A stretch of 64,000 bases of DNA from Rubripirellula sp. (GTDB lineage: Bacteria; Planctomycetota; Planctomycetia; Pirellulales; Pirellulaceae), in the NCBI GenBank assembly GCA_965216875.1, contig OZ244207.1:4096001-4160000 (forward strand), in the 5' to 3' direction. The notes beneath the pieces were generated by a model. It worked only from the letters and a program-made list of their open reading frames with translations, had not been told where the DNA came from and searched no databases. Within the stretch, counting starts at the first letter, position 1. Each line of letters begins with the position of its first letter. The translations under genes and the position numbers were made by a program. Below are positions 6,137 through 19,075 of this stretch, piece after piece.

Positions 6137-7114
6137 GTGAAAGCGATTGTGCGCGACCAATACGGTGGCCCCGAGGTATTGCGACTCGAAGAGATCGCAA
6201 CACCCGTACCAGATCCCAATGAAGTCTTGATACAAATCAACGCAGCCTCGGTCGCCAAAGGGGATTGGGAAATCCTGCGTGGCGACCCGTTTTGGGTTCG
6301 GTTGGTCGGCTTTGGCTTTCGCCATCCAAAGCAGCGAACGCTTGGCTACAACTTTGCCGGGCGGATCGAAGCGGTCGGTGAACAGGTTTCGCGTTACAAA
6401 CCGGGCGATCTTGTGTTTGGCGTTTGCCTGCACTCACGATTGGGAGCGTTTGCCGAACGTATTGCTCTCCCCGAGGACGCTGCGTTCGTGCACATGCCCG
6501 AAAACTTGGGGTTCGATCAAGCCGCGAGCCTCCCCGAGGCTGGATGCATCGTCCTGCAAGCCTTCCATCGCACGACTCAACTTGAATCGGGCCAACGTGT
6601 CTTGATCAACGGAGCAGGGGGCGGCGCCGGATCGTTGGCAATCCAATGCGCCAAATCGCAAGGGGCCATCGTCACCGCAATCGACCGCGGCGAGAAACTC
6701 GACTTCATGCGATCCATCGGAGCCGACGAGGTGATCGATTACACCCAGGCGTCGCAGGATTCGATCGATCAAACGTATGACGTGATTCTTGACGTCGTTG
6801 GCACAGGCTCGATCGGGACTTGGAACCGCATGCTGCGTCCACACGGACAGTACTTGGCTGCGGGTGGGAGTGTTTCTCAGATCATCAAGACACTAGCGCA
6901 AGGCGCGTGGTTTTCTGCGACCACGTCAAAACGACTTGGCATGTTGACAGTCTCGCCGACCAAAGAAGACCTGGAACTTCTCTGCAACTGGATCGCATCC
7001 GAGACCATCACGCCAACCATCGACCAAACCTTTTCGTTGGACGATGTCCCCGATGCGATCCGCTACTTGGGCGACGGCCGATCGAAAGGCAAAGTGGTGA
7101 TCGCCGTTGCTTGA
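6137..7114 (+). CDS. NAD(P)-dependent MDR-family oxidoreductase (zinc-independent ADH/quinone reductase-like)
   Basis: MKAIV..YGGPEVL start; VLINGAGGGAGS nucleotide motif; GADEVIDY; GRSKGKVVI terminus. Confidence 0.92.
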   Translation: MKAIVRDQYGGPEVLRLEEIATPVPDPNEVLIQINAASVAKGDWEILRGDPFWVRLVGFGFRHPKQRTLGYNFAGRIEAVGEQVSRYKPGDLVFGVCLHSRLGAFAERIALPEDAAFVHMPENLGFDQAASLPEAGCIVLQAFHRTTQLESGQRVLINGAGGGAGSLAIQCAKSQGAIVTAIDRGEKLDFMRSIGADEVIDYTQASQDSIDQTYDVILDVVGTGSIGTWNRMLRPHGQYLAAGGSVSQIIKTLAQGAWFSATTSKRLGMLTVSPTKEDLELLCNWIASETITPTIDQTFSLDDVPDAIRYLGDGRSKGKVVIAVA

Positions 7115-8015: not shown

Positions 8016-8092
8016 CCATCGACTCCATTGAGCAAAAATCAGACGCTACCGCTTATTTTAACCAGAGTGCGTCAGGGATCACAACGGTCGGG

Positions 8093-8942
8093 GACAAATG
8101 ACCGTGCGCGGACAAGAGAGACAGAAAGATAGGTGACACAAAAATGACCGGGGCAAGCAGACATCAACGACACAGTCGGGTCATTTTTTTGTCCTCCATC
8201 TTTTTGTCCTTTCTTTCTTTCACTGCATCGCGCGTTCACCGAGAAACTGATAATCCGTTCGTCCGAACGCGGTGACAAATGACCGTAAGTGGAAAAGAGA
8301 GGCAGAAAGATCGATGGCATAAAAATGGCTGGGGCTGGCAAACATCAACGACATAGCCGGGTCATTTTTTTGTCCTCCATCTTTTTGTCCTTTCTTTCTT
8401 TCACTGCATCGCGCGTTCAACAAGAAACTGATAATCCGTTCGTCCGAACGCGGTGACAAATGACCGTGCGCAGACAAGAGAGACAGAAAGATCGGTGACA
8501 TAAAAATGGCTGGGGCTGGCAAACATCAACGACACAGTCGGGTCATGTTTTTGTCCCCCATCTTTTTGTCCTTTTCTTTCTTTCACTGCATCGCGCGTTC
8601 ACCGAGAAACTGACAATCCATTCGTCCGAACGCGGCGCAAGTGACCGTGCGCGGACAAGAGAGACAGAAAGATCGGTGACATAAAAATGACCGGGGCAAG
8701 CAGACATCAACGACACAGCCGGGTCATTTTTTTGCCCTCCATCTTTTTGCCTTTTCTTTCTTTCACTGCATCGCGCGTTCACCGAGAAACTGATCATCCG
8801 TTCGTCCGAACGCGGTGAGAAATGACCGTAAGTGGAAAAGAGAGGCAGAAAGATCGGTGGCAAAAAGATGGCTGGGGCTGACACACAGCAGGGTCATTTT
8901 TTTGTCCCCCATCTTTTTGTCCTTTCTCTCTTTCGCTGCATC
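8093..8942. repeat. Tandem array of about 4.7 copies of a 181-bp unit, each containing a long imperfect inverted repeat
   Basis: TGACCGT recurs at 8099, 8280, 8461, 8642 and 8823 (period 181). Each unit has an arm like GACAGAAAGATAGGTGACACAAAAATGACC paired with GGTCATTTTTTTGTCCTCCATCTTTTTGTC, plus a small hairpin CGTTCGTCCGAACG. Confidence 0.97.
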
Positions 8943-8965: not shown

Positions 8966-10081
8966 TCAACGATGTGGCGGCAAAAAGTCGTTCAGATTGT
9001 GTGGTCGCAGGTCTTCCCAGTTACCGGTTGCTTCAGGCTCAGGGTATTTCTCAAACAACTGATGTAGCGCCTCGCAACAAGCCTCTGATAGCCCCAGGAA
9101 AGGATAATCGACGGACTTTGAGAGTACGTGAACGAGTAGTCGCTCCGTCTCGGCATCGGCCATTCCCTGTTCGCCAACAAACTCAATGATGCTGCACATA
9201 TGGGAGGGAACGTCGGGCGTTGGTTCCCAGCCGTCAGCCCAAATCTCGATCCTCTTTGTCCATCTGGCGGCGAACTTCAGCAGTGGCGTGGCCGCATCAC
9301 TCCCTAAATCAATCAAGTAGCCCAATGGAGTTTTTGGGTTCACACCTGTCCGCTTCAATCCGGCATCGCTTCCAGACAAGGTCCCTTCGAGCACGCGTAG
9401 CCACTGTTCGATTTGCTCTTGCTTGTCAAAGGCCCCGATTCGTTCAACCATTTGTTCGACCACAACGTGCGTGGGTGTCACATCTGTGCGAACATCCCAA
9501 TCACGTTCCTTTCGCCCCATCAAGCCAAGTTGAGAAAGTAGTTCGCGCTTCTCATCGGGAATGGCGTTACAGATGTCTTCGTAGACGTCGCATCCATGAT
9601 CTGTTCCGTTGGCTGGGTAGGCGATGAATTCGTCCGCCACCTGCAAGTTCTCGGGCCAGAGAATGGTATTCAAGGTTTCGCAGAGCCGCGTTGCCATTTT
9701 CCGAGTCAACGTTGCATTCGGCTCGGCACAAAGTTGTTCGTAGAGTTTCGCGAGCAGCGGTTTGGTCGCGTCGGATCTTCCGAGAATGATCTCTGTCCCT
9801 CGATGGCTGTCCCAAATCATCCGGAGGGCTTCTTCACCAACACTACTAAGGATTTCCTCGCGTTCCCTTGCCGTGAGCGCATGACAAAGGAAATAGGCAG
9901 CCGGGGCGCACGTGTCGTAGTACTCAACGCGGAAACGCACGACCGGTGAAGCAAAGGCTAGCTTCGAAAACGCCCGCGCCGTCTCCTGCACGAGCGGCCC
10001 AACCAGCGATTCAATGAGCTGCTCTTGATCTGTCACAACGACTGCCCTCGACATTGATGCGATACATACCACCAGATTCAA
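8966..10081 (-). CDS. Hypothetical protein (orphan, 371 aa; start may be about 10054)
   Basis: Long ORF filling the gap between the array and the KAP locus; globular composition; no recognised motif. Confidence 0.75.
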   Translation of the reverse strand: MNLVVCIASMSRAVVVTDQEQLIESLVGPLVQETARAFSKLAFASPVVRFRVEYYDTCAPAAYFLCHALTAREREEILSSVGEEALRMIWDSHRGTEIILGRSDATKPLLAKLYEQLCAEPNATLTRKMATRLCETLNTILWPENLQVADEFIAYPANGTDHGCDVYEDICNAIPDEKRELLSQLGLMGRKERDWDVRTDVTPTHVVVEQMVERIGAFDKQEQIEQWLRVLEGTLSGSDAGLKRTGVNPKTPLGYLIDLGSDAATPLLKFAARWTKRIEIWADGWEPTPDVPSHMCSIIEFVGEQGMADAETERLLVHVLSKSVDYPFLGLSEACCEALHQLFEKYPEPEATGNWEDLRPHNLNDFLPPHR

Positions 10082-10211
10082 AGGACATTATTCTTGCATG
10101 GCCCTAACACGTGTACATCCACTATCGTTGATTTGCGATCACAAACTTCCATGACTAAATTCGCATCTCTTGGGAGAAAAGGCAGAGCCCGATCGATTGT
10201 GGGGGCGCGAG

Positions 10212-13028
10212 ATGGCGAAAAAGAAATCGGTTTCGAAATCGTTCGACTTGGCGTACGACACGGCACAGGGGGTTGGGCGGCGTCGACTTGCGTTGAGTCG
10301 CGAGCAGGTTTTGTGGGCCTGCTTGGGGACGCTCTTGGTCGTGAGTTCGACGTGGTACTTCACGACTCGAGCACCCTATCATGACGCCTATACCCGCCCG
10401 TCTCTCCTTAGCCTTGAGGGCTGGACTTGCCCAATCGAACACAATGCTCCGCAGCGACTTGTCCGCATCAATCAACACTTTCGCGATGTGATCGCTCCGT
10501 CTGGTACCACTGACGTTTGGGCCGTCGGTGAGAGTGGTGTGATTCTGCACAGTGATGACTCTGGAAAAACGTGGACGTTGCAACACCAATATCGCGAGGA
10601 CGCAACAGGCGGAGTGAGCAACTCAGCGTGGCCCGTTCATGCAGCCCACTTTTCGACCGATGGTCAATTTGGATTGGCTGTTGGCTTTGGAGGTGTCGCT
10701 TTGCGATGCCTCGATGGCGAGACTTGGACAGAGGTCGCCATTCCCGGGTTGCCGCGAGCCGTACTTGAAGGCACCAGCGGTGAAATTGCGAATGCTTTGC
10801 ATGACGTTCAGGTCATCGATCCGATGCACCAATGGATCGTAGGTGATAACGTCCTTTGCTACTCCTCCGATGGTGGTGACACCTGGACAAACGCCCGGAT
10901 TCCGCAGTTGGTCGGTGAAGCGAAAAGTGGCGGTTACGCGATCAGTGCTGTGTCGGCAAATGAGTGCTCGGTCGGAAATCAAGACGGCATTTATCGAACG
11001 ACCAATGGGGGTGTTAATTGGGTAGAAACGCTCCCTACCTCGAGGATCTTTTCGCTGAAGATCAACGGAGGATTCGGCCTGGCGACGGGCGAGCATTGGC
11101 AATCCGCGCCACTTCCCACGAAGGGAAAAGAGACCGTTAGAGCGGCACCCATCGACGAACTAATACCAGCGACTTTGGTGGCGCAAAGAGGTGAGACGAT
11201 AGCCGCGTCTCAGCCAGCCCAAACCTTTTGGAAGTCAACCAATGGCGGAACGGATTGGACTCCGATCTCGCCTGCCGTCGCTGGTGTTGAAGGGCCACTG
11301 CTTGCCGTGGACGTTAGCGAAACGGGAAACGGCTGGGCCGTCGGCGCACCTGGGCTTCTGCTGCGATCAATGGACAAGTTGAACACGTGGGAACAGGTTT
11401 CGATTCCCGTCGAATGCACACTTAACGCAGTTAGCTTTCGCGACGAAGCGAATGGCTGGGCCGTCGGCGATGACGGCACCATTTTGCATTCCGCGGATAG
11501 CGGTCAAACGTGGATACGCCAATCCCAAAACCTAGCAACCGTTTCAGCGGGAACCTACCGCTGGTTTCCCGGCATTGGCTACTACGTCGTTCTTGCTGTC
11601 TCGGCGTTCGTTTTTGTTCGCGTCCGTAATCCGGTCAGTCATACGGAAGTCCCAACCGATCCCATCGAGTCGATCGATACGCCCGGAGTCTCAGATCGAC
11701 CTCTCACATCTGACCGACCGGATCACCTAAATTTCCGCCCGCTGGCTCTGGCGATCTCACGTTTCATGCGTAACGAGGACACCGAACCACCGATCACGAT
11801 CGCAGTCACGGGTGGCTGGGGCACTGGCAAGAGCTCTCTGATGAATTTGGTACGCGAGGATCTCGAGCGACACGGTTTCCGTCCTGTTTGGTTCAACGCT
11901 TGGCATCATCAAAACGAAGAGCAGATGTTGGCTTCGTTACTCGAGAACATTCGCAGCAACGCAATTCCGCGTTGGCGCAATTTGGGCACTCGCCTTCGAT
12001 TCCGCTGGCGGCTGCTTCGCAAAAAAGCGGGTAATCAGATTTGGCTTGTTTGTGGATTTGTGGCGATAGGCGTGTTAGCAAGCTTGATCCCTGGACTGCC
12101 TGAACTGATTCGTTCATCCGTTCTGTGGCTCACTTCGTCAATCAAGGGCGAGCAAAGCACTCTCGCTGCGACCGAATCTGGGGTAGGCAACTCAGGTGTA
12201 AACCTCGTGTTTTGGACAACCCTGTTGGGAGTTACCGCTGCGATCTGGCGCGCTGTGACTGCCTTCGGAATGAACCCTGCCATGTTGCTCGCTCAGGTTT
12301 CGAATGCCTCAAAGATCGCTCAGTTGGGGGACAAACTCAGTTTCCGGCATCGCTTTGCCGAGGAGTTCAAAGTCGTAACATGGGCCCTAAAACCGCGCGC
12401 GCTCGTGATCATGATCGATGACCTTGATCGCTGCCGCCCCGAAAATGTCCTTGAGGTCCTCGAGGCAATCAACTTCCTAGTGACCTCGGGTGACTGCTAC
12501 GTCATTTGCGGCATGGCGCTTAATCGTGTGGAGCCATGCATTGGGCTCGGATTCGAACGCGTCGCCGCAGAAATGGATTCCGAAGATTCCTTCGACGGCA
12601 ACAGTGATGGCGAAGGCGAAGAACTGGACGAAGAAGAAAACGCTCGTCTCAGACGCAGGCAATATGCGCGGCAGTATCTTGAGAAACTAATCAACTTCCC
12701 AATCCCAGTCCCGCAGATGACCGAAACTCAGGCAAGAAGCCTCGTATCAAACGGTGAGGGTCTAGGGCCATCCGATGAAGAGCCAAGTCCTTCGATTCGT
12801 CGCTGGGCGAGAGAAGAGTTGGAAAAGCATTCGCGACTCCTCGCCGCCGCCGCGTTCCTGATGGTGGTAGTCATCATGTTTGTCATTTCAGCAAACCGGC
12901 GCAACGAAAACACCAAACAAACGCCCGAAACTACCACTGAACGAAGTAGCGTTGCTCCGCCCCCGGACCCCGAAGCCTCTTTCACTCAACGACATCCGCT
13001 CCCTCTAGCCCTCGGAGAACCTCGATGA
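10212..13028 (+). CDS. Membrane protein: YCF48/BNR-repeat beta-propeller + KAP-family P-loop NTPase, lacking the C-terminal KAP motif
   Basis: Repeated WAVG..G.IL.S.DxGxTW Asp-box units; SDRP..DHLNF; Walker A GGWGTGKSS; FNAWHHQ; two TMs inserted in the NTPase; Walker B IMIDDLDRC; YLEKLINFPIPVP; ATG 10212 preferred over TTG 10170. Confidence 0.9.
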   Translation: MAKKKSVSKSFDLAYDTAQGVGRRRLALSREQVLWACLGTLLVVSSTWYFTTRAPYHDAYTRPSLLSLEGWTCPIEHNAPQRLVRINQHFRDVIAPSGTTDVWAVGESGVILHSDDSGKTWTLQHQYREDATGGVSNSAWPVHAAHFSTDGQFGLAVGFGGVALRCLDGETWTEVAIPGLPRAVLEGTSGEIANALHDVQVIDPMHQWIVGDNVLCYSSDGGDTWTNARIPQLVGEAKSGGYAISAVSANECSVGNQDGIYRTTNGGVNWVETLPTSRIFSLKINGGFGLATGEHWQSAPLPTKGKETVRAAPIDELIPATLVAQRGETIAASQPAQTFWKSTNGGTDWTPISPAVAGVEGPLLAVDVSETGNGWAVGAPGLLLRSMDKLNTWEQVSIPVECTLNAVSFRDEANGWAVGDDGTILHSADSGQTWIRQSQNLATVSAGTYRWFPGIGYYVVLAVSAFVFVRVRNPVSHTEVPTDPIESIDTPGVSDRPLTSDRPDHLNFRPLALAISRFMRNEDTEPPITIAVTGGWGTGKSSLMNLVREDLERHGFRPVWFNAWHHQNEEQMLASLLENIRSNAIPRWRNLGTRLRFRWRLLRKKAGNQIWLVCGFVAIGVLASLIPGLPELIRSSVLWLTSSIKGEQSTLAATESGVGNSGVNLVFWTTLLGVTAAIWRAVTAFGMNPAMLLAQVSNASKIAQLGDKLSFRHRFAEEFKVVTWALKPRALVIMIDDLDRCRPENVLEVLEAINFLVTSGDCYVICGMALNRVEPCIGLGFERVAAEMDSEDSFDGNSDGEGEELDEEENARLRRRQYARQYLEKLINFPIPVPQMTETQARSLVSNGEGLGPSDEEPSPSIRRWAREELEKHSRLLAAAAFLMVVVIMFVISANRRNENTKQTPETTTERSSVAPPPDPEASFTQRHPLPLALGEPR

Positions 13029-14599
13029 GTTGGATTCGCACAACAATCTTGCTGATGGGCGTTCTGGGATTTGGGCGCGTTAGCATGCCCGCGGAGGACG
13101 TCGAAGCCTTGATCGGGGGCTTCAAGCTGATACCACCCAAGCCCGCAATCGACGACGACTTGGTTATTCACTTCCAGCATGCCATCACTCGGGACGGGAC
13201 CGCAGACGAGGCCTCTCACGCAGAGGATACACCGAAGATCACTTTTCACGCATTTGTCGACAACCAACCAAAGGTGTCTCAGTCGATCGGCCCTGGAACC
13301 ATCTTGCTGAACAAGGTTGAAGAGGGACGTTTTACTGTTGTCGTTCAAGTCGCTGATGAAATGTCTGTCATCTCCTTTGATGTTGGACCTCAAAACGCGC
13401 CAACCGATTCGTCTTCTTCACTCCCCCATTCCATTGATGAAGACGCCCCGCCACCACCCGCCGAGGATGGCAACGTTATTGCTCCGACAAACTCAGCACA
13501 GGCCAATTCAGCGAGAGACTTGCCCAAACGCGACCACAACGAATCCTCCCCATCCGGGACCGACAACACGGTGGGAAACAGTGTTGGGCAAAACAACACA
13601 GGCACAACTGGATTCATCGTACGCCACGAGTTCCTAATCGATGCGACCAAGACAGCCGCTAGCCGCCTCAATCCCACGCAAACGCGGGAGTTGAAAAACC
13701 GCATCGACTCACTGCGACTGGAGATTGGATCCGGCGGATCTTCACACGGGGAACAATTCCGCAGAACGATCGCTCAATCGGATATGCGCGATACCGGGAC
13801 ACATTCCATCTGGCCGCGTGTCTACATCGACTTGCGCGACGGCATTTTGGCCGAATCGATTGACACCAACGACTTAGATGCCTGGCGACAAACGCTAAGA
13901 AAGATCAGCGACGCGTTGAACGCCCTGCTGCGGAGCGAAACTGGTTACTCGAATTCTGGCCAACTCAGGTATCCCGTGCCATTGACGGACCCAGTCGAAT
14001 ATGAGGCACCCGAGGATGGAACGCTGTTGGCTTGGTGGTTGCCCTTGTTTGCCTTGCTCGCGTGCGGTCTCCTTCTCGTGCAAGCAGCATCGAGGACGGT
14101 CGAACCGATCGTTCACGACTCACAAGACTTCAAAGAAGCCCTCGACATTTGGCATGATGTCATCGCGATCGATTGTCGAACTCCGCGTGCCTTCAAACGT
14201 TTCGTTAATCGGCTCCGATTTTCCGCCATGCGCATCCGACCTCCTGGCGCCGACCCAACGCACTTCGATCTGTTTACCGATTACTTTCGCAAGTGGATTG
14301 GCCTACCGACAAAAGCGAGTCAGCAACCCATCGCTTGGGACCAACTTGCGGGCAATGAAGCGGTGATCGTTGCACTCACCGCGATCTTGCAGGCCGACCG
14401 CACTTGGCTTGATGATGACCGCCACTGGTCTTGGTTACAAAGTGGTTGTAGCGGCCGCGCTCCTGCAGGCCTCGATCCAACACAACGCAACACCATCCGC
14501 GACGCCATCGCCATGCACAAAACGCACTTTGGATTTTGGTCGCCACATGACTCGCTTCGCGAGAGTCTTCGATCCGTTGCGGTCGAAGATGCGATTTGA
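13025..14599 (+). CDS. Signal-peptide, single-pass membrane protein whose C-terminal tail carries a KAP NTPase C-terminal motif
   Basis: ATGA overlap with the previous stop; GGAG 7 nt upstream; leader MSWIRTTILLMGVLGFG; TM LLAWWLPLFALLACGLLLV; then DSQDFKEALDIW..TPRAFKRFVNRLRFSAMR. Confidence 0.82.
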   Translation: MSWIRTTILLMGVLGFGRVSMPAEDVEALIGGFKLIPPKPAIDDDLVIHFQHAITRDGTADEASHAEDTPKITFHAFVDNQPKVSQSIGPGTILLNKVEEGRFTVVVQVADEMSVISFDVGPQNAPTDSSSSLPHSIDEDAPPPPAEDGNVIAPTNSAQANSARDLPKRDHNESSPSGTDNTVGNSVGQNNTGTTGFIVRHEFLIDATKTAASRLNPTQTRELKNRIDSLRLEIGSGGSSHGEQFRRTIAQSDMRDTGTHSIWPRVYIDLRDGILAESIDTNDLDAWRQTLRKISDALNALLRSETGYSNSGQLRYPVPLTDPVEYEAPEDGTLLAWWLPLFALLACGLLLVQAASRTVEPIVHDSQDFKEALDIWHDVIAIDCRTPRAFKRFVNRLRFSAMRIRPPGADPTHFDLFTDYFRKWIGLPTKASQQPIAWDQLAGNEAVIVALTAILQADRTWLDDDRHWSWLQSGCSGRAPAGLDPTQRNTIRDAIAMHKTHFGFWSPHDSLRESLRSVAVEDAI

Positions 14600-14751: not shown

Positions 14752-16296
14752 ATGAAACTGCATCACAAGTTCTTTACCTTTGTGGTGATCGCTTGCAGTC
14801 TTGCCAGCAATGCTGCAGCCCAAGACCAAGCTTCGACGTTCACCGCGAAAGACTATCCCGAGGCCTACCAAGCGAACTGGGATTCGCTCGCGAAACATGG
14901 CCGGGCTCCCGAATGGTTCGCGGACGCAAAGCTCGGAATCTACTTCCACTGGGGGCCATACACCGTCCCCGGTTTCCGAACGGAGTGGTACCCGCGCTGG
15001 ATGCACATGGAAAAACCAGCCAACTGGGGCGCTGGCTCGATGGAGTATCACAAAGAGCACTACGGTGACCCCTCGGAATTTGGCTACCACCACTTCATCC
15101 CGATGTTCACTGGCGAGCACTTTGATCCTGCCGACTGGGCCGAACTCTTTGCATCGGCCGGTGCAAAATTTGCCGGCCCCGTTGCCCAGCATCACGACGG
15201 ATTCTCGATGTGGGCCAGTAAGATCAATCCCAACAACGCCAAAGTCGAAGGTCCCAAGCGAGACATTCTTGGCGAGCTGTTTGGTGAACTTCGTAAACGC
15301 GACATGAAAACGATCGCGACGTTCCATCACTCGTTCACGGGTCAACGCCACCGTGACGGCGTGAAAAAAGGGGAACGTAACACGAGCTACTACCCCTACA
15401 ACAAAGACTATTTCACCTCGAGCGAAGATCCAAAGCTTCGCAAGCTCTACGGGAACATGCCCGAAGCGGAATTCAACGACTATTGGTTGAACTTGGTCCA
15501 GGAAGTGGTCGACACCTATTCGCCTGACATGATCTGGTTCGACTCGTGGCTCGATGTGATCCCTGAAGACTACCGACAACGGATGGCGGCACATCACTTC
15601 AATGCCACTGCCGCTCGTGGCGAACCGGGTGTTTTGATCTGCAAGCAGGATGACATGCCCGATCAACTTCGCGTGCTCGACATCGAGCAGGGCGGCATGA
15701 AGGAAATGCCCGACAAGGTTTGGATGACCGACATCACGTTGAGCCTGAACGGTTGGTGCCACGTCCAAAACCAAAAATACAAATCGCTGCCGTTGCTCGT
15801 TCGCAACATGGTCGACGTATGGAGTAAACGTGGTGTTGTGCTTCTCAACATTTCACCACGAGCTGATGGTGTCATCCCCGACAACCAGCGTGAACTGCTG
15901 CATGGTCTCGGCGACTGGTTGGAAGTCTATGGCGAAGCCGTCTATGGAACGCGTCATCACCATGTGTTTGGCTACGGCGATGCCACCATCAAAGAGGGAC
16001 ACCACGGAGGCCAATCGGCAACGATCAAGTACACAGCCAGTGACATTCGTTTCACCCGGTCGGCCGATGGCAAAGCAATTTACGTCTTCTTCCTTGGGCA
16101 ACCCGAAGAGGGATCGAAGTTGACGGTCCGCCACTTGGCAGCCGACGGCCAACAGGTCGATGTGAAAGACGTATCATTGCTTGGCAGCGACGCGCCGTGC
16201 CAGTGGCAATTTGAAGACGGCCTCCTGAAAGTGGTTGCCCCCCAGGGGACCAAGGCCAATGAAATTGCAACGGTTTACAAGGTCTCGCTGAAATAG
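14752..16296 (+). CDS. Alpha-L-fucosidase (GH29), secreted
   Basis: Signal peptide; PEWFADAKLGIYFHWG; AQHHDGFSMW; PDMIWFD; LLNISPRADG; GEAVYGTR. Confidence 0.95.
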   Translation: MKLHHKFFTFVVIACSLASNAAAQDQASTFTAKDYPEAYQANWDSLAKHGRAPEWFADAKLGIYFHWGPYTVPGFRTEWYPRWMHMEKPANWGAGSMEYHKEHYGDPSEFGYHHFIPMFTGEHFDPADWAELFASAGAKFAGPVAQHHDGFSMWASKINPNNAKVEGPKRDILGELFGELRKRDMKTIATFHHSFTGQRHRDGVKKGERNTSYYPYNKDYFTSSEDPKLRKLYGNMPEAEFNDYWLNLVQEVVDTYSPDMIWFDSWLDVIPEDYRQRMAAHHFNATAARGEPGVLICKQDDMPDQLRVLDIEQGGMKEMPDKVWMTDITLSLNGWCHVQNQKYKSLPLLVRNMVDVWSKRGVVLLNISPRADGVIPDNQRELLHGLGDWLEVYGEAVYGTRHHHVFGYGDATIKEGHHGGQSATIKYTASDIRFTRSADGKAIYVFFLGQPEEGSKLTVRHLAADGQQVDVKDVSLLGSDAPCQWQFEDGLLKVVAPQGTKANEIATVYKVSLK

Positions 16297-16335: not shown

Positions 16336-17097
16336 CTAGTCATGGCGAAATTGATTTCGATAGCCGCGTGGCGTGATTCCCGTCACGCGGCGAAATCGTT
16401 TGGTGAAGTGGCTTTGGTCAAAAAAACCGACCTCTGATGCGATCTCGGCAAGGCTTCGAGAGGTTTGCGTCAACAACCGCTGCGCATGTTGAACACGTAA
16501 CGACAGAATAAAGTCGGTTGGCGACATCCGCAGCAGTGTTCGAAAACGCTGGTTGAACTGCGTCGCCGAAAGCCCCGCCATCGATGCCATCTCGCGCATC
16601 GAAATGGCATCGGTGTGATGCTCGCTGATGTACCGGACCACCGGCGACAATTCCTGAAAGTAAGCCTGCTGGTCTTCGGGCGTGGCAATCGGGTACATCA
16701 CACCCGCAATGCCGACGACCTCGCCGTCGAGATCAAAGAGCGGCGTTTTGGTCGAGACGTACCAACGCGGAGTACCGCGCACGTGTGGGACAAGCCAAAC
16801 CTGGTTTGCGATCGTTTTTCGACCGTCCATCACGCGACGGTCTTCGGCATGGTACGCCTCTGCCAGGGCGGGCGGCTGAAACTCGGCGTCCGTCCGCCCT
16901 AGCAATTCATTTGCGTCATCGAGCCCAAAGACGTCACGCAGCGTTGCGGAATTGATCCAAACGTACCGATGCTGGCGGTCCTTGCCATAGAAATAGGCGC
17001 CGGGCATGTGCTCAAACAGTGGCAGCACAAACCCACTGTGCAGTCCACTTGCCAGGAACGCACGCTGGAATTCGTCAGGTTGATCGGCAGCCGCCAT
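16336..17097 (-). CDS. AraC-family regulator with N-terminal PAS-like domain
   Basis: FYGKDRQHRYVWIN..GRTDAEF PAS_4-like region; C-terminal IASEVGFFDQSHFTKRFRRVTGITP AraC signature. Confidence 0.93.
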   Translation of the reverse strand: MAAADQPDEFQRAFLASGLHSGFVLPLFEHMPGAYFYGKDRQHRYVWINSATLRDVFGLDDANELLGRTDAEFQPPALAEAYHAEDRRVMDGRKTIANQVWLVPHVRGTPRWYVSTKTPLFDLDGEVVGIAGVMYPIATPEDQQAYFQELSPVVRYISEHHTDAISMREMASMAGLSATQFNQRFRTLLRMSPTDFILSLRVQHAQRLLTQTSRSLAEIASEVGFFDQSHFTKRFRRVTGITPRGYRNQFRHD

Positions 17098-17326: not shown

Positions 17327-18835
17327 TTAGAACGTGCCGAGCTGGCGGCGTTCGACACCCGAAAGCAATTGCAGCAGCGCCGCTCGCAATTCACGCACTT
17401 TCAACGGCAGTGCCAAATGCTTGCGGTTGGGACCACGTTTGGCTCGAGAGAGAATATGAGTCTGGCGGTTGTCGGCCAACAAGACGGCGGGAATGTCACG
17501 CGTGTGTTCGTCTTCAGCAAACTTGTTGTAGGCGTCGACGGCCAGGTCCGCCAACTCGGCTGCGCCGAAAATCACGCAATCGGCCGGGTTGTCCTCTTGG
17601 GGATCAAAGCGTGCCAGAGCGCGATTCGGGTCCGAGATGATCAACACGCGGTAGCCGCGTGATTTGAGACGTTCACGAATCGCGTTTTGCAGGCCAGCTT
17701 TTGATTCAACCAACATCACAACGTAGCCCTCGCCCTCGTTGGTTGGGATGTCATCGTCGTCGTGATGATCGGCCATTGCGTTGCCGGCAAAGTCAGGCGC
17801 GAGCTTGCGTTTGTGACCACCTTCAAGGATCTCGATTGCCTTCTTCACTTCTGCCTGCAGCGCGGCAGCCGACTGAATCCGCTTTTCAGGATTGAATTCC
17901 ATACAACGCTGAACCACCTGGTTCGCGATACTTGGAACATCGGGGACGCGTTCGTGAAGTGGAACGACTTCTTGGAAACGCGTCACATTCAAACGTTGCA
18001 GTCGGTCGCGTGTTTCGGTGAGTGCCGGCGTACCGGCCAACATGTGATAGAGCATGTTGCCCGCGAAATAGATATCGCTTCGCGGATCATCTTTTCGGAC
18101 TCCTGTTCCACGTTCGAGCGCGGCATAGTCGATTGCCCGAGCGTTCGGACAGTCGGCCATCTTCTCGGGGTTGTTTCGATCCGAAAGGGCAGCCAAACCA
18201 AAGTCGACCAACTTTGCTTTGCCGTCGGACGAAATCAAAACGTTTGAAAGCTTCAAGTCACGGTGCGCAATCCCGAACGTCGCGGCATACGCCAATCCCG
18301 AGGCAACTTCATAAAGCAAACGCAATGCAAGATCGGCGGGCAACTTTCCGCGGACACGAACAAGTTCGCGCAGTGTTTGGCCTTCGACAAACTCCATCAC
18401 CAGGAACGGGTTTCTCACATCAGGAACAACATCTTCAATGCTAACGATGTGAGGATGCCTTAGTTTCAATCCCATGCGACCTTCGCGCAGGAACTGTTCC
18501 ATCTCTTTGACTTCGTCACGAAACCGTTTCCGAAGCACTTTCACCGCGTAGACTTTGCCATCCTTTTCCGCGCGATAAACTCGCGCGAACGTTCCGGCAC
18601 CGATCACATAAAGGACCTTGTAGTCGCCGTAAAAATAGCCGTGGCGATCGCCCTTGAGGATTTTCTCCGTTTGCAGCGTCGTGACCAAACCACGGCGCTG
18701 CATTTGTGTGATCACGTCGTCCAACTCGACAATGCCCGTACCAAGCTCACTCATTGCCTGATCTACGGCCCGTCGGTCGGCGAGCCCTAATTCAGAAATG
18801 CGAAGAGCGAATTGCTCGGGAGTCGGTTTTTCCAT
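17327..18835 (-). CDS. Hanks-type Ser/Thr protein kinase with C-terminal receiver-like domain
   Basis: GAGTFARVY, YAVKVL, HRDLKLSN, DFG; C-terminal VMLVE..RGYRVLII..DCVIFG..IPAVLL receiver pattern; start set at MEKPT. Confidence 0.9.
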   Translation of the reverse strand: MEKPTPEQFALRISELGLADRRAVDQAMSELGTGIVELDDVITQMQRRGLVTTLQTEKILKGDRHGYFYGDYKVLYVIGAGTFARVYRAEKDGKVYAVKVLRKRFRDEVKEMEQFLREGRMGLKLRHPHIVSIEDVVPDVRNPFLVMEFVEGQTLRELVRVRGKLPADLALRLLYEVASGLAYAATFGIAHRDLKLSNVLISSDGKAKLVDFGLAALSDRNNPEKMADCPNARAIDYAALERGTGVRKDDPRSDIYFAGNMLYHMLAGTPALTETRDRLQRLNVTRFQEVVPLHERVPDVPSIANQVVQRCMEFNPEKRIQSAAALQAEVKKAIEILEGGHKRKLAPDFAGNAMADHHDDDDIPTNEGEGYVVMLVESKAGLQNAIRERLKSRGYRVLIISDPNRALARFDPQEDNPADCVIFGAAELADLAVDAYNKFAEDEHTRDIPAVLLADNRQTHILSRAKRGPNRKHLALPLKVRELRAALLQLLSGVERRQLGTF

Positions 18836-19075
18836 CGGAGAATAGAGATTGCGCGTGTGTTGGTATTGGTCATCAAAGGTGGCGCCGGCCGAAGTCGGAC
18901 CGAGGGCAAACAACGTCGCAACCCCCCGGGAAATGGCCGAACAGGCTCCTCTCTGGCGCCAGCAGTTGGGACCTATTCTACACCGAGGATGCCCAATCGC
19001 AGACAGGACAATCCGTAAGCCGGCGAGTTCTGCGGCTCGCTAACGAATTTACGGGCAAAACGGATCGTACCAACG

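Follow-up and report, generated by a model that had tools for sequence, protein, structure and literature searches.

We analyzed a window of 64,000 nucleotides from Rubripirellula sp. (Planctomycetota, Pirellulaceae; GenBank assembly GCA_965216875.1, contig OZ244207.1, positions 4,096,001 to 4,160,000). Two overlapping open reading frames (ORFs) on its plus strand, ORF1 (10212..13028, 938 aa) and ORF2 (13025..14599, 524 aa), appear to encode the N-chain and the C-chain of one split membrane nucleoside triphosphatase (NTPase) of the KAP type with a periplasmic beta-propeller. With a probability of roughly 0.75, the comparisons below suggested that ORF1 and ORF2 form a maintained two-chain variant of a membrane NTPase found as one polypeptide in most other bacteria. 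What is new is its distribution over two genes, together with the leader that ORF2 appears to have acquired and its larger second ectodomain; the KAP NTPase subfamily from which it derives is known but uncharacterised. An earlier reading of the same DNA without database searches (the sequence-only reading) had proposed a candidate undescribed sensing or defence system. It is not wholly undescribed: the single-chain family is large and already stands in databases as 'P-loop NTPase fold protein', 'YCF48-related protein' or 'photosystem II stability/assembly factor-like uncharacterized protein'. No paper on propeller-KAP proteins turned up in literature searches.

The two predicted chains and the site of the break

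ORF1 starts at ATG 10212, an upstream TTG at 10170 being a less likely start, and stops at TGA 13026-13028. In the Pfam scan, KAP_NTPase (PF07693) matched ORF1 with an E-value of 9.1e-25 and 87.9 bits against a gathering cut-off of 20, and residues 510-758 mapped to profile positions 3-180 of 293. PSII_BNR also matched, with an E-value of 4.3e-21. The YobI-ATPase profile gave 23.4 bits, below its gathering cut-off of 27 and far below the KAP score. ORF1 was the sole PF07693 match in the 8.26-Mb genome, so that there is no alternative partner for ORF2.

Membrane helices were located by a Kyte-Doolittle scan with a 19-residue window, which indicated five hydrophobic helices in ORF1 (residues ~30-51, 451-471, 608-628, 663-685 and 874-894). 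The first transmembrane helix (TM1, 10299..10364) follows a basic, cytoplasmic N-terminus and was assigned from hydropathy, flanking charge and a helix at 30-51 in the AlphaFold2 (AF2) model, whose predicted local distance difference test (pLDDT) was 90-95 from residue 31. It is followed by an extracytoplasmic Ycf48-like beta-propeller (residues ~52-450, 10365..11561), which was recognized by the PSII_BNR match, by Foldseek and by five Asp-box-like motifs found in a motif search at residues 114, 218, 263, 386 and 427. TM2 (residues ~451-471, 11562..11624; hydropathy 1.82, model helix 455-472) would bring the chain back to the cytoplasm. Motif searches then located the Walker A motif GGWGTGKS at residue 534 (11811..11834) and the Walker B motif VIMIDDLDR at residue 732 (12405..12431), and between them lies the TM3-TM4 hairpin (residues ~608-685, 12033..12266; hydropathy 2.21 and 1.43; model helices 591-625 and 661-683). 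The last conserved cytoplasmic element of ORF1, the YLEKLINFPIPVP motif (12675..12713), was likewise found by motif search. An alignment of 60 family members showed as invariant the Walker A residues G534, K540 and S542, the Walker B region I735-C741, and Y822, L823, K825, L826, N828, P832 and P834 of the YLEKLINFPIPVP motif. ORF1 then continues into TM5 (residues ~874-894, 12831..12893; hydropathy 2.88) and a low-complexity tail of 44 aa (12894..13025), which is predicted to lie outside and ends at the break. The model gave residues 900-938 a pLDDT below 50.

ORF2, defined from the ORF list and from its phmmer relatives, begins with a signal-like leader, MSWIR + TTILLMGVLGFG + RVSMPA (13025..13093), with an 11-residue hydropathy of 2.08 and a model helix at 2-13. 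The leader has an n-region with R5 and an h-region of 12 residues, and a clear AxA site was not visible by eye. The alignment of four ORF2-type proteins delimited a second ectodomain (residues ~24-333, 13094..14023) consisting of a short beta region, a low-complexity stretch and a helical region. The helical region is conserved in the split clade, with R214, L230, L270, D280, W287 and A297 among the invariant positions (n=4). The equivalent of TM6 (residues ~334-356, 14024..14092; hydropathy 2.38-2.88, model helix 335-356) is preceded by acidic residues (-5) and followed by R. The remainder is a putative cytoplasmic helical tail, the C-terminal part of a KAP domain (14093..14596), recognized from 14 invariant columns and the model. 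Motif searches placed the DSQDFKEALDIW motif at 14117-14152 and TPRAFKRFVN, residue 386, at 14180-14209. Leader and topology rest on hydropathy, charge and homology. Based on the basic N-terminus of ORF1 and seven K/R among the 15 residues preceding TM3, the predicted topology has the propeller outside, the P-loop domain inside, the last 44 residues of ORF1 and the first 333 of ORF2 outside, and the ORF2 tail inside.

ORF2 alone had no Pfam match, either as a whole protein at E-values up to 0.1 or as the tail at E-values up to 10, and neither PADLOC nor NCBIfam models matched it. The tail spans too little of the KAP profile to be matched by itself. A word-indexed search with ORF2 among proteins of near length returned only ORF2 itself, and an ESM Atlas search with ectodomain residues 25-333 gave no usable match. 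A phmmer search with ORF2 against 1.84 billion representatives yielded 578 relatives at E <= 1e-3, whose alignments ran through residues ~250-524 and mainly through ~330-520, the membrane helix plus tail. Among the 149 matches listed (query excluded), 87 carried a Walker A motif on the same chain (639-1661 aa), with ORF2 residues ~330-520 aligned at their C-terminus. A further 23 had no Walker A but retained Walker B or YLEK and were N-terminally truncated pieces. When 25 ORF2 matches were scanned with Pfam, KAP_NTPase was found in 21 and PSII_BNR in 17. The KAP match of P0015, P0019, P0021 and P0022 reached profile positions 288-291 of 293 and ended 13-16 residues past the T of the TPR motif. 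Since the match runs through the motif in these single-chain relatives, TPRxxKRFxN marks the end of the KAP domain.

The other 39 listed matches consisted of the tail only, without Walker A, Walker B or YLEK. They were not counted as more splits, as several begin inside the conserved VPVP region and resemble fragments or miscalled starts. We also observed a protein of 734 aa on a 372-kb contig (P0196) that ends right after the YLRKLINIEIPVP motif, ahead of TM5, and many short proteins that start just ahead of TM5 and carry TM5, loop, TM6 and tail. P0196 and the 39 tail-only matches hint at a second, independent break before TM5; fragments or miscalled starts would also be possible. In another relative, P0023, a PSII_BNR match (residues 270-307) lies downstream of the KAP core (KAP match 94-209), between hydrophobic segments at ~233 and ~361 that were taken to bound the TM5-TM6 loop. 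The second outside loop of some family members may thus itself contain propeller repeats.

The single-chain proteins P0004, P0008, P0010, P0021 and L021 (2404-6837) share a common order of propeller, KAP core, YL(E/D)KLINIEVPVP, TM5, loop, TM6 and tail, with the tail consensus VVKDSxEF..AL.IWHP...TPRxxKRFxNRVRYLAMRQR. Their TM5-TM6 loop is outside, low in complexity, short and variable. In 146 single-chain proteins, the YLEK and TPR motifs are 171-302 residues apart (median 184). Exactly two hydrophobic segments lie between them in 139 of the 146, and a third in only 3. The equivalent distance in the pair is 116 + 386 = 502 residues. TM5 of ORF1 corresponds to the first of the two segments; ORF1 stops 44 aa past it and the second segment sits in ORF2, which places the break in the extracytoplasmic TM5-TM6 loop. 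The pair differs from the family in that its domains are not on one polypeptide: ORF1 ends at the stop 13026-13028, ORF2 lies in another frame and the reads agree. All remaining family features were found across both chains.

The propeller-KAP family comprises at least 1212 proteins, the number that matched ORF1 480-938 at E <= 1e-20 when 8000 candidates were scored. By source names it includes Pyrinomonadaceae, Thermoanaerobaculia, Nitrospira, Brocadia, KSB1, Caldithrix and Armatimonadetes, and its phyla include Acidobacteriota, Nitrospirota, Planctomycetota and others. Identity across phyla was 32-38% over the whole length and 39-54% in the KAP part. A metagenome scan yielded one locus, which was single-chain. 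Among seven loci from a genome scan, L017-L020 were single-chain, L014 was split, L015 was cut by the contig end and L016 was frameshifted in the core.

These comparisons bear on the sequence-only reading. The membrane helices, propeller, Walker motifs, fifth helix and outside tail that it had described for ORF1 were all present near where it had placed them, as were the ATGA overlap, GGAG, leader, ectodomain of ~310 aa, single helix and tail motifs of ORF2. Its proposal of a split KAP NTPase agreed with the Pfam matches on ORF1, where the scan it had suggested found both KAP_NTPase and PSII_BNR and left ORF2 alone unmatched, and with the homology of the ORF2 tail to single-chain C-termini. 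Comparison with the 146 single-chain proteins upheld its placement of the break in an extracytoplasmic loop. Hydropathy and homology likewise supported its suggestion that the ORF2 layout of leader, outside domain, membrane helix and inside tail would return TPRxxKRFxN to the cytoplasm.

Reality and probable persistence of the two-gene form

The junction (13014..13028) combines a GGAG Shine-Dalgarno-like site with an ATGA start/stop overlap. It reads ...GGAGAACCTCGATGA, with GGAG at 13014-13017 lying 7 nt ahead of ATG 13025, so that the ORF2 start codon overlaps the ORF1 stop (GGAG-N7-ATGA). ORF2 is in a different reading frame from ORF1, and upstream of its ATG that frame is open for 25 codons only, closed by TAG 12947-12949. 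The two ORFs would be joined by one added base anywhere in 12950-13024, such as within its C5 run, and a base lost in this way is a typical assembly error. Read-derived Logan contigs from runs X1 (depth ~770), X2 and X4 (110-122) matched the junction exactly, with 0 differences and 0 gaps over 12950-13060. A contig from run X5 (another study and organism label, depth 7) covered 12845-12995 with 0 differences. X1, X2 and X4 belong to one study, possibly the assembly's own source, and their match is agreement with the assembly, not evidence from an independent strain. Because the read-rebuilt contigs cross the junction without a difference, assembly error at the junction is excluded.

The same break was found in a second genome. 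The best match of ORF1 was P0156 from a Pirellulaceae metagenome-assembled genome (MAG), with an E-value of 2.6e-119 and 54% identity in the KAP part. At this MAG locus (L014), the ORF1-type gene stops at TGA 6289-6291, 40 residues past TM5, and its product ends in a tail similar to that of ORF1. The ORF2-type gene follows in another frame, with a likely start at GTG 6296 behind AGGGGA. The MAG belongs to another genus, and its layout is as in Rubripirellula at 54% (ORF1-type) and 34% (ORF2-type) identity, with both ORFs intact. Two further ORF2-type proteins with leaders, P0002 (Planctomycetes MAG) and P0003, share the tail and part of the ectodomain with ORF2. A leader-like basic and hydrophobic N-terminus was seen by eye in 4/4 ORF2-type proteins, of which 3 passed an 11-residue hydropathy threshold of 2.0; those of P0002, P0003 and L014 are longer, with A-rich segments at the end. 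In these proteins the predicted leader goes along with the split.

To compare the tails, we built a maximum-likelihood tree (LG+G4, quick search) from 105 rows, namely the four split-type tails, L021 and 100 drawn at random from the remaining 187 of 192 eligible tails. The four split-type tails formed one side of a branch with an approximate likelihood-ratio (SH-aLRT) support of 84, suggesting that the split likely has one origin. Root-to-tip distances, taken from midpoint rooting, were 1.18-1.39 for the four and not above the median of 1.48; the ORF2 tail, at 1.39, ranked 58/105. Constraint was judged from invariant columns and branch lengths, as synonymous sites are saturated at 34-54% identity. 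ORF1 retains 73/73 invariant columns of the 60-member alignment and ORF2 14/14 of an alignment of 44 tails. An ORF of 400-520 codons at 24-38% identity would not stay intact without selection, and the split therefore appears to be old and functional.

Structure prediction was also examined. In the AF2 model of ORF1 (mean pLDDT 70.8), the propeller and the long membrane helices were accompanied by a five-stranded P-loop core (528-533, 557-562, 731-736, 763-768 and 829-832). The best Protein Data Bank (PDB) matches of the propeller in Foldseek were Ycf48 structures (5ojr_C, E-value 1.5e-12, 16% identity, TM-score 0.48 by target length), and the KAP part had 0 matches to PDB sequences at E <= 0.01. 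The ORF2 tail was modelled as all-helical, with block-mean pLDDT of 80-98 over residues 331-520 and one block at 60. The ORF2 ectodomain was mostly below 50, with helices 202-252 and 281-305 at block means of ~59-81. Against 48,161 PDB representatives, the ORF2 model gave no convincing tail fold. The best hit was 8tnm_A (Z 6.0, rmsd 4.4, 110 aligned), followed by mixed helical proteins; a Z of 6.0 is under the meaningful level for helical bundles, and the ectodomain was barely probed. As the model puts all five core strands and both Walker motifs in ORF1, the nucleotide-binding core would, if the model is right, lie wholly in ORF1, and ORF2 would add a helical tail domain and no part of the core.

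A complex prediction for ORF1 480-938 with ORF2 320-524 scored 0.56 (runs 0.55-0.60), and the best of three controls scored 0.00. The runs shared >=60% of contacts, and partner pLDDT was >=66. The mark used is reached by 116/157 solved complexes and 2/215 mismatched pairs, counts that apply only approximately here, since the prediction used custom alignments. At scores <=0.60 it is reached by only 18/157 solved complexes and by both of the passing mismatches. The score adds little, because both parts form one chain in relatives and binding was already likely.

Several points weigh against a maintained two-chain enzyme. Its chains are predicted proteins, and its complete two-gene layout is known from two genomes only (for P0002 and P0003, the ORF2-type protein only). 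Sequencing runs presumed to be RNA contained next to none of the sequence words of this stretch, which does not bear on expression. An ORF2 relative was not found in 40 close relatives. The ORF2-type profile matched 3/401 sampled Planctomycetota, one of these copies being broken by stops, and 2/401 sampled Pirellulaceae, the Rubripirellula genome and the MAG, with only 3-4 candidates scored per genome. Clade support is moderate (SH-aLRT 84 from a quick LG+G4 search), and the comparison of rates hangs on midpoint rooting. Export and cleavage of the ORF2 leader are predictions, with a short hydrophobic core of 12 residues and no clean AxA. The complex score falls in the weak band. Decay also occurs in the family, as the G420 copy has stop codons and a copy from Bradyrhizobium (L016) carries a frameshift within the core.

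Both decayed copies were described as observations in their own right. At L016 (4276-7462, a Bradyrhizobium erythrophlei draft contig), the frame changes between the Walker B region and YLEK, with frames overlapping at 6350-6495; this site differs from the ORF1/ORF2 break, and the copy is either a pseudogene or a draft-assembly error. At L023 (491-1593, G420, Planctomycetota), stop codons interrupt the copy, and its core, a piece with TM5 and the beginning of the tail each occupy a short frame of their own.

We weighed two explanations in which the pair would not function as two chains. Recent gene breakage on the way to loss, by a frameshift that left ORF2 as an untranslated or useless remnant, would fit the out-of-frame ORFs, which a single base in a 75-nt stretch would fuse, the broken family copies in G420 and L016, and the absence of the pair from the 40 relatives. 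However, the MAG of another genus has the same break with intact ORFs at 54%/34% identity, the four split-type tails group together and are conserved like single-chain tails, and the invariant residues are all retained. ORF2 also has a Shine-Dalgarno-like site, an ATG, a leader and a conserved ectodomain specific to the clade, all of which a fresh remnant should lack, and we regard breakage as quite improbable. It is harder still to credit that one chain of ~1460 aa is still made, through a -1 frameshift in the last 25 ORF1 codons or because the assembly is wrong. The ORF2 frame is indeed open for 25 codons upstream of its ATG, with the C5 run inside, but the contigs rebuilt from reads bear out the assembly, reading 12950-13024 by eye revealed no slippery heptamer of the canonical X XXY YYZ kind, and the MAG would need a +1 shift, not -1. 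A leader right after the ORF2 start codon also fits a separately translated, exported chain.

For the maintained two-chain form, the checks named by the sequence-only reading were thus largely favourable. The reads revealed no indel at the junction, ORF2-type proteins begin with leader-like segments (by eye in all four, over the threshold in three), and the ORF2 tail aligned to KAP C-termini by phmmer and by Pfam on relatives. There was no sign of relaxed selection or pseudogenisation, with invariant columns kept and branch lengths not raised. The search for other split versions recovered the same layout in the MAG, and the grouping of the four split tails points to one likely origin. Its proposal that the NTPase is completed in trans needs a correction, in that ORF2 would supply the C-terminal helical domain and no part of the core, which the model does not divide.

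Relation to known systems, neighbourhood and function

Aravind, Iyer, Leipe and Koonin reportedly described the KAP family in 2004, including Kidins220/ARMS and PifA, with TM helices inserted within the NTPase domain. Like KAP_NTPase (PF07693) proteins, the pair has Walker A and B motifs separated by an inserted membrane hairpin, and it carries the C-terminal motif with which the profile closes. The profile score, Walker A (GxxGxGKS/T) and Walker B (hhhhDDLDR), and the TM insert (hydropathy and AF2) were all found on ORF1, and (T/N)PRxxKRxxN on the second chain. The pair differs in adding TM5/TM6 before the last motif and a periplasmic propeller, and in spreading the domain over two genes. Its closest counterparts are the single-chain propeller-KAP NTPases (e.g. 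P0008 from a Pyrinomonadaceae MAG, P0021 and L021), which have the same domain order, six membrane helices and the same invariant motifs. These are one polypeptide with a median spacing of 184, whereas the pair has two genes, an export leader, a spacing of 502 and a clade-specific ectodomain.

Likeness to other systems was more partial. QatA (of QatABCD) shares the KAP-type P-loop, but the matches covered only parts of its profile and PADLOC matched no Qat partner near ORF1/ORF2. With Tmn/YobI proteins the pair shares a membrane hairpin inside the P-loop domain and a helical C-terminal region, but the YobI match of ORF1 is weak. As described in the available part of PMC13001434, Tmn belongs to a different family and is a single chain with a long solenoid arm and without a periplasmic domain; decameric assembly and Mg2+ export are there shown for Tmn only, and PifA has no membrane helices. 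EF_KAP and KAP-fusion defence proteins have a KAP NTPase with membrane helices followed by a domain-less region needed for function, according to the accessible portion of the report (PLoS Biol 2026, PMC13552941). In that portion they come from Firmicutes, have their C-terminal regions in the cytoplasm and lack a propeller, and the pair is likened to them by description. Ycf48/HCF136 resembles the ORF1 ectodomain in fold and through the PSII_BNR match. Ycf48 is a free lumenal propeller in phototrophs, whereas the ORF1 propeller is held between TM1 and TM2 of an NTPase in a non-phototroph.

The neighbours of ORF1/ORF2 include a GH29 fucosidase, an AraC-PAS regulator, a Ser/Thr kinase, ArgRS, RsfS and YidC. 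Those of the MAG locus include Dus and ThiF, and the single-chain L021 lies beside a deacetylase, a Ctp protease, an M23 peptidase, FtsX and an ABC ATPase. The neighbours thus differ at the three loci and look like housekeeping genes, and no gene neighbour conserved across the three was found. Pfam detected no integrase or transposase among 29 neighbours. PADLOC detected no dedicated defence partner among 21 neighbouring proteins of the Rubripirellula window and the MAG locus, the other matches at E <= 1e-5 being to a generic-looking kinase, an FtsX/LolE-type permease and a HEAT-repeat protein. No Qat partner protein was matched by PADLOC among 18 window neighbours. ORF1 itself matched the PADLOC models of QatA (2.1e-25), PifA (1.1e-19) and the candidate PDC-S20. 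The QatA NCBIfam equivalog gave an E-value of 1.4e-28 and 100 bits against a cut-off of 600, and the best PifA stretch (E-value 1.1e-19) lay on profile positions 7-98 of 720, so that similarity to PifA did not extend over the full length. These PADLOC and NCBIfam matches were confined to generic P-loop parts. The Ycf48 NCBIfam equivalog scored 77.8 bits on ORF1 against a cut-off of 326. In these searches, nothing links the pair to defence.

Some features of the surrounding genes are recorded here. The GH29 alpha-L-fucosidase gene directly downstream of ORF2 (14752-16296, plus strand) encodes a hydrophobic, signal-like N-terminus. Because no terminator-like site was found on the plus strand between them, co-transcription with ORF2 is possible. 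The AraC-type regulator gene with a PAS domain follows at 16336-17097 on the minus strand. The Ser/Thr kinase (528 aa, with a C-terminal extension; 17330-18913, minus strand) lies three genes downstream of ORF2. It matched the PADLOC PD-T4-6 model PDLC04055 with an E-value of 4.5e-157, residues 27-518 on profile positions 1-484 of 496; this match may reflect only generic kinase content, and a link to the KAP pair was not seen. A 181-bp tandem array (4.8 copies, 87% match) occupies 8089-8942, just upstream of a divergent gene at 8966-10081, and gives rise to a series of small ORFs on the minus strand that resemble one another (MPAPAIF...SPRSDERIISF...) and are unlikely to be genes.

In the history that we propose, a small lineage of planctomycetes acquired a cut in the single-chain gene, within the outside loop between TM5 and TM6. 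The upstream gene would have retained everything up to TM5; the downstream gene would have gained a ribosome-binding site, a start codon, a hydrophobic export leader and an enlarged outside domain while retaining TM6 and the tail. Both chains would be co-translated from one mRNA, inserted separately and re-associated through their membrane helices and by docking of the tail on the P-loop domain, giving a six-helix NTPase with two ectodomains.

As to function, we tentatively suggest, at somewhat less than even odds and by analogy, a nucleotide-driven switch like other membrane KAP/YobI NTPases, coupled to a periplasmic ligand-binding propeller. The propeller, with the second ectodomain, would bind a conserved envelope or periplasmic ligand and signal via the helices to the cytoplasmic NTPase. 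Because no other effector domain is present, the output would be a changed membrane assembly of the protein itself or an effect on another partner. The lack of a conserved neighbour, an effector domain and a characterised close relative counts against such a switch. That the split itself serves regulation, an incomplete ORF1 NTPase becoming competent only once the separately exported ORF2 chain joins, seems a long shot. Joining would then be controlled in the periplasm, where the propeller and the ORF2 ectodomain would bind each other or a shared ligand. Nothing in the present results supported the comparison drawn by the sequence-only reading with a receptor whose activity depends on two ectodomains meeting.

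Two other functions were considered. The pair, and the whole propeller-KAP family, might be an anti-phage or other conflict system that detects an invader at the envelope and stops infection through the membrane, a mode of action proposed for PifA and shown for some membrane KAP and YobI NTPases. The QatA, PifA and PDC-S20 matches and the patchy distribution within Planctomycetota would fit. In the available parts of two papers, membrane-helix KAP proteins protected Enterococcus from phages (PMC13552941), and the defence provided by Tmn, a membrane NTPase of the YobI family, works through plasmolysis (PMC13001434). We nevertheless consider defence unlikely, if a serious contender, given the confinement of the matches to generic P-loop parts, the QatA score of 100 bits against 600, and the missing Qat partners, dedicated PADLOC partners and mobile genes among the neighbours; the core and propeller are also strongly conserved across phyla, unlike fast-diversifying sensors. 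A machine working from the inside out, in which cytoplasmic NTP hydrolysis moves the propeller in the periplasm and an envelope complex is thereby built, repaired or remodelled, is by analogy a rather doubtful possibility. Ycf48 aids membrane-complex assembly, FtsEX- and MacB-type systems transmit force across the membrane, and Aravind et al. reportedly proposed in 2004 that KAP NTPases regulate membrane-complex assembly. The accessible part of PMC13001434 restates that proposal. In structure the propeller comes closest to Ycf48 assembly factors, the highly conserved core and propeller suggest a conserved ligand, and the neighbours are housekeeping genes, with those of L021 including the deacetylase, proteases, FtsX and ABC ATPase named above. 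Yet no neighbour is conserved across the three loci, the Ycf48 equivalog stays at 77.8 bits against 326, and most relatives lack the family, an uncommon pattern for a core function of the envelope.

Significance of the probable two-chain form

To our knowledge, splits within an outside loop are rare among membrane proteins, as the downstream piece is left without a route into the membrane. The downstream gene described here seems to have solved membrane entry with its own export leader, and the pair would be a natural example of a surviving fission. The pair marks the exact site where a KAP domain can be cut, and it could serve to test the role of the conserved C-terminal helical tail. If the split does regulate activity, the pair would act as a two-chain transmembrane NTPase receptor assembled by its ligand, and such a signalling logic is not known to have been described for P-loop NTPases of bacteria. 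If the proposed coupling of propeller and NTPase is correct, the propeller-KAP family of at least 1212 proteins would represent a so far uncharacterised class of transmembrane NTPases that transduce signals from the outside in or from the inside out. Collectively, the results draw attention to a large and conserved family of membrane NTPases with a periplasmic Ycf48-like propeller, for which envelope sensing, complex assembly and defence are candidate roles.

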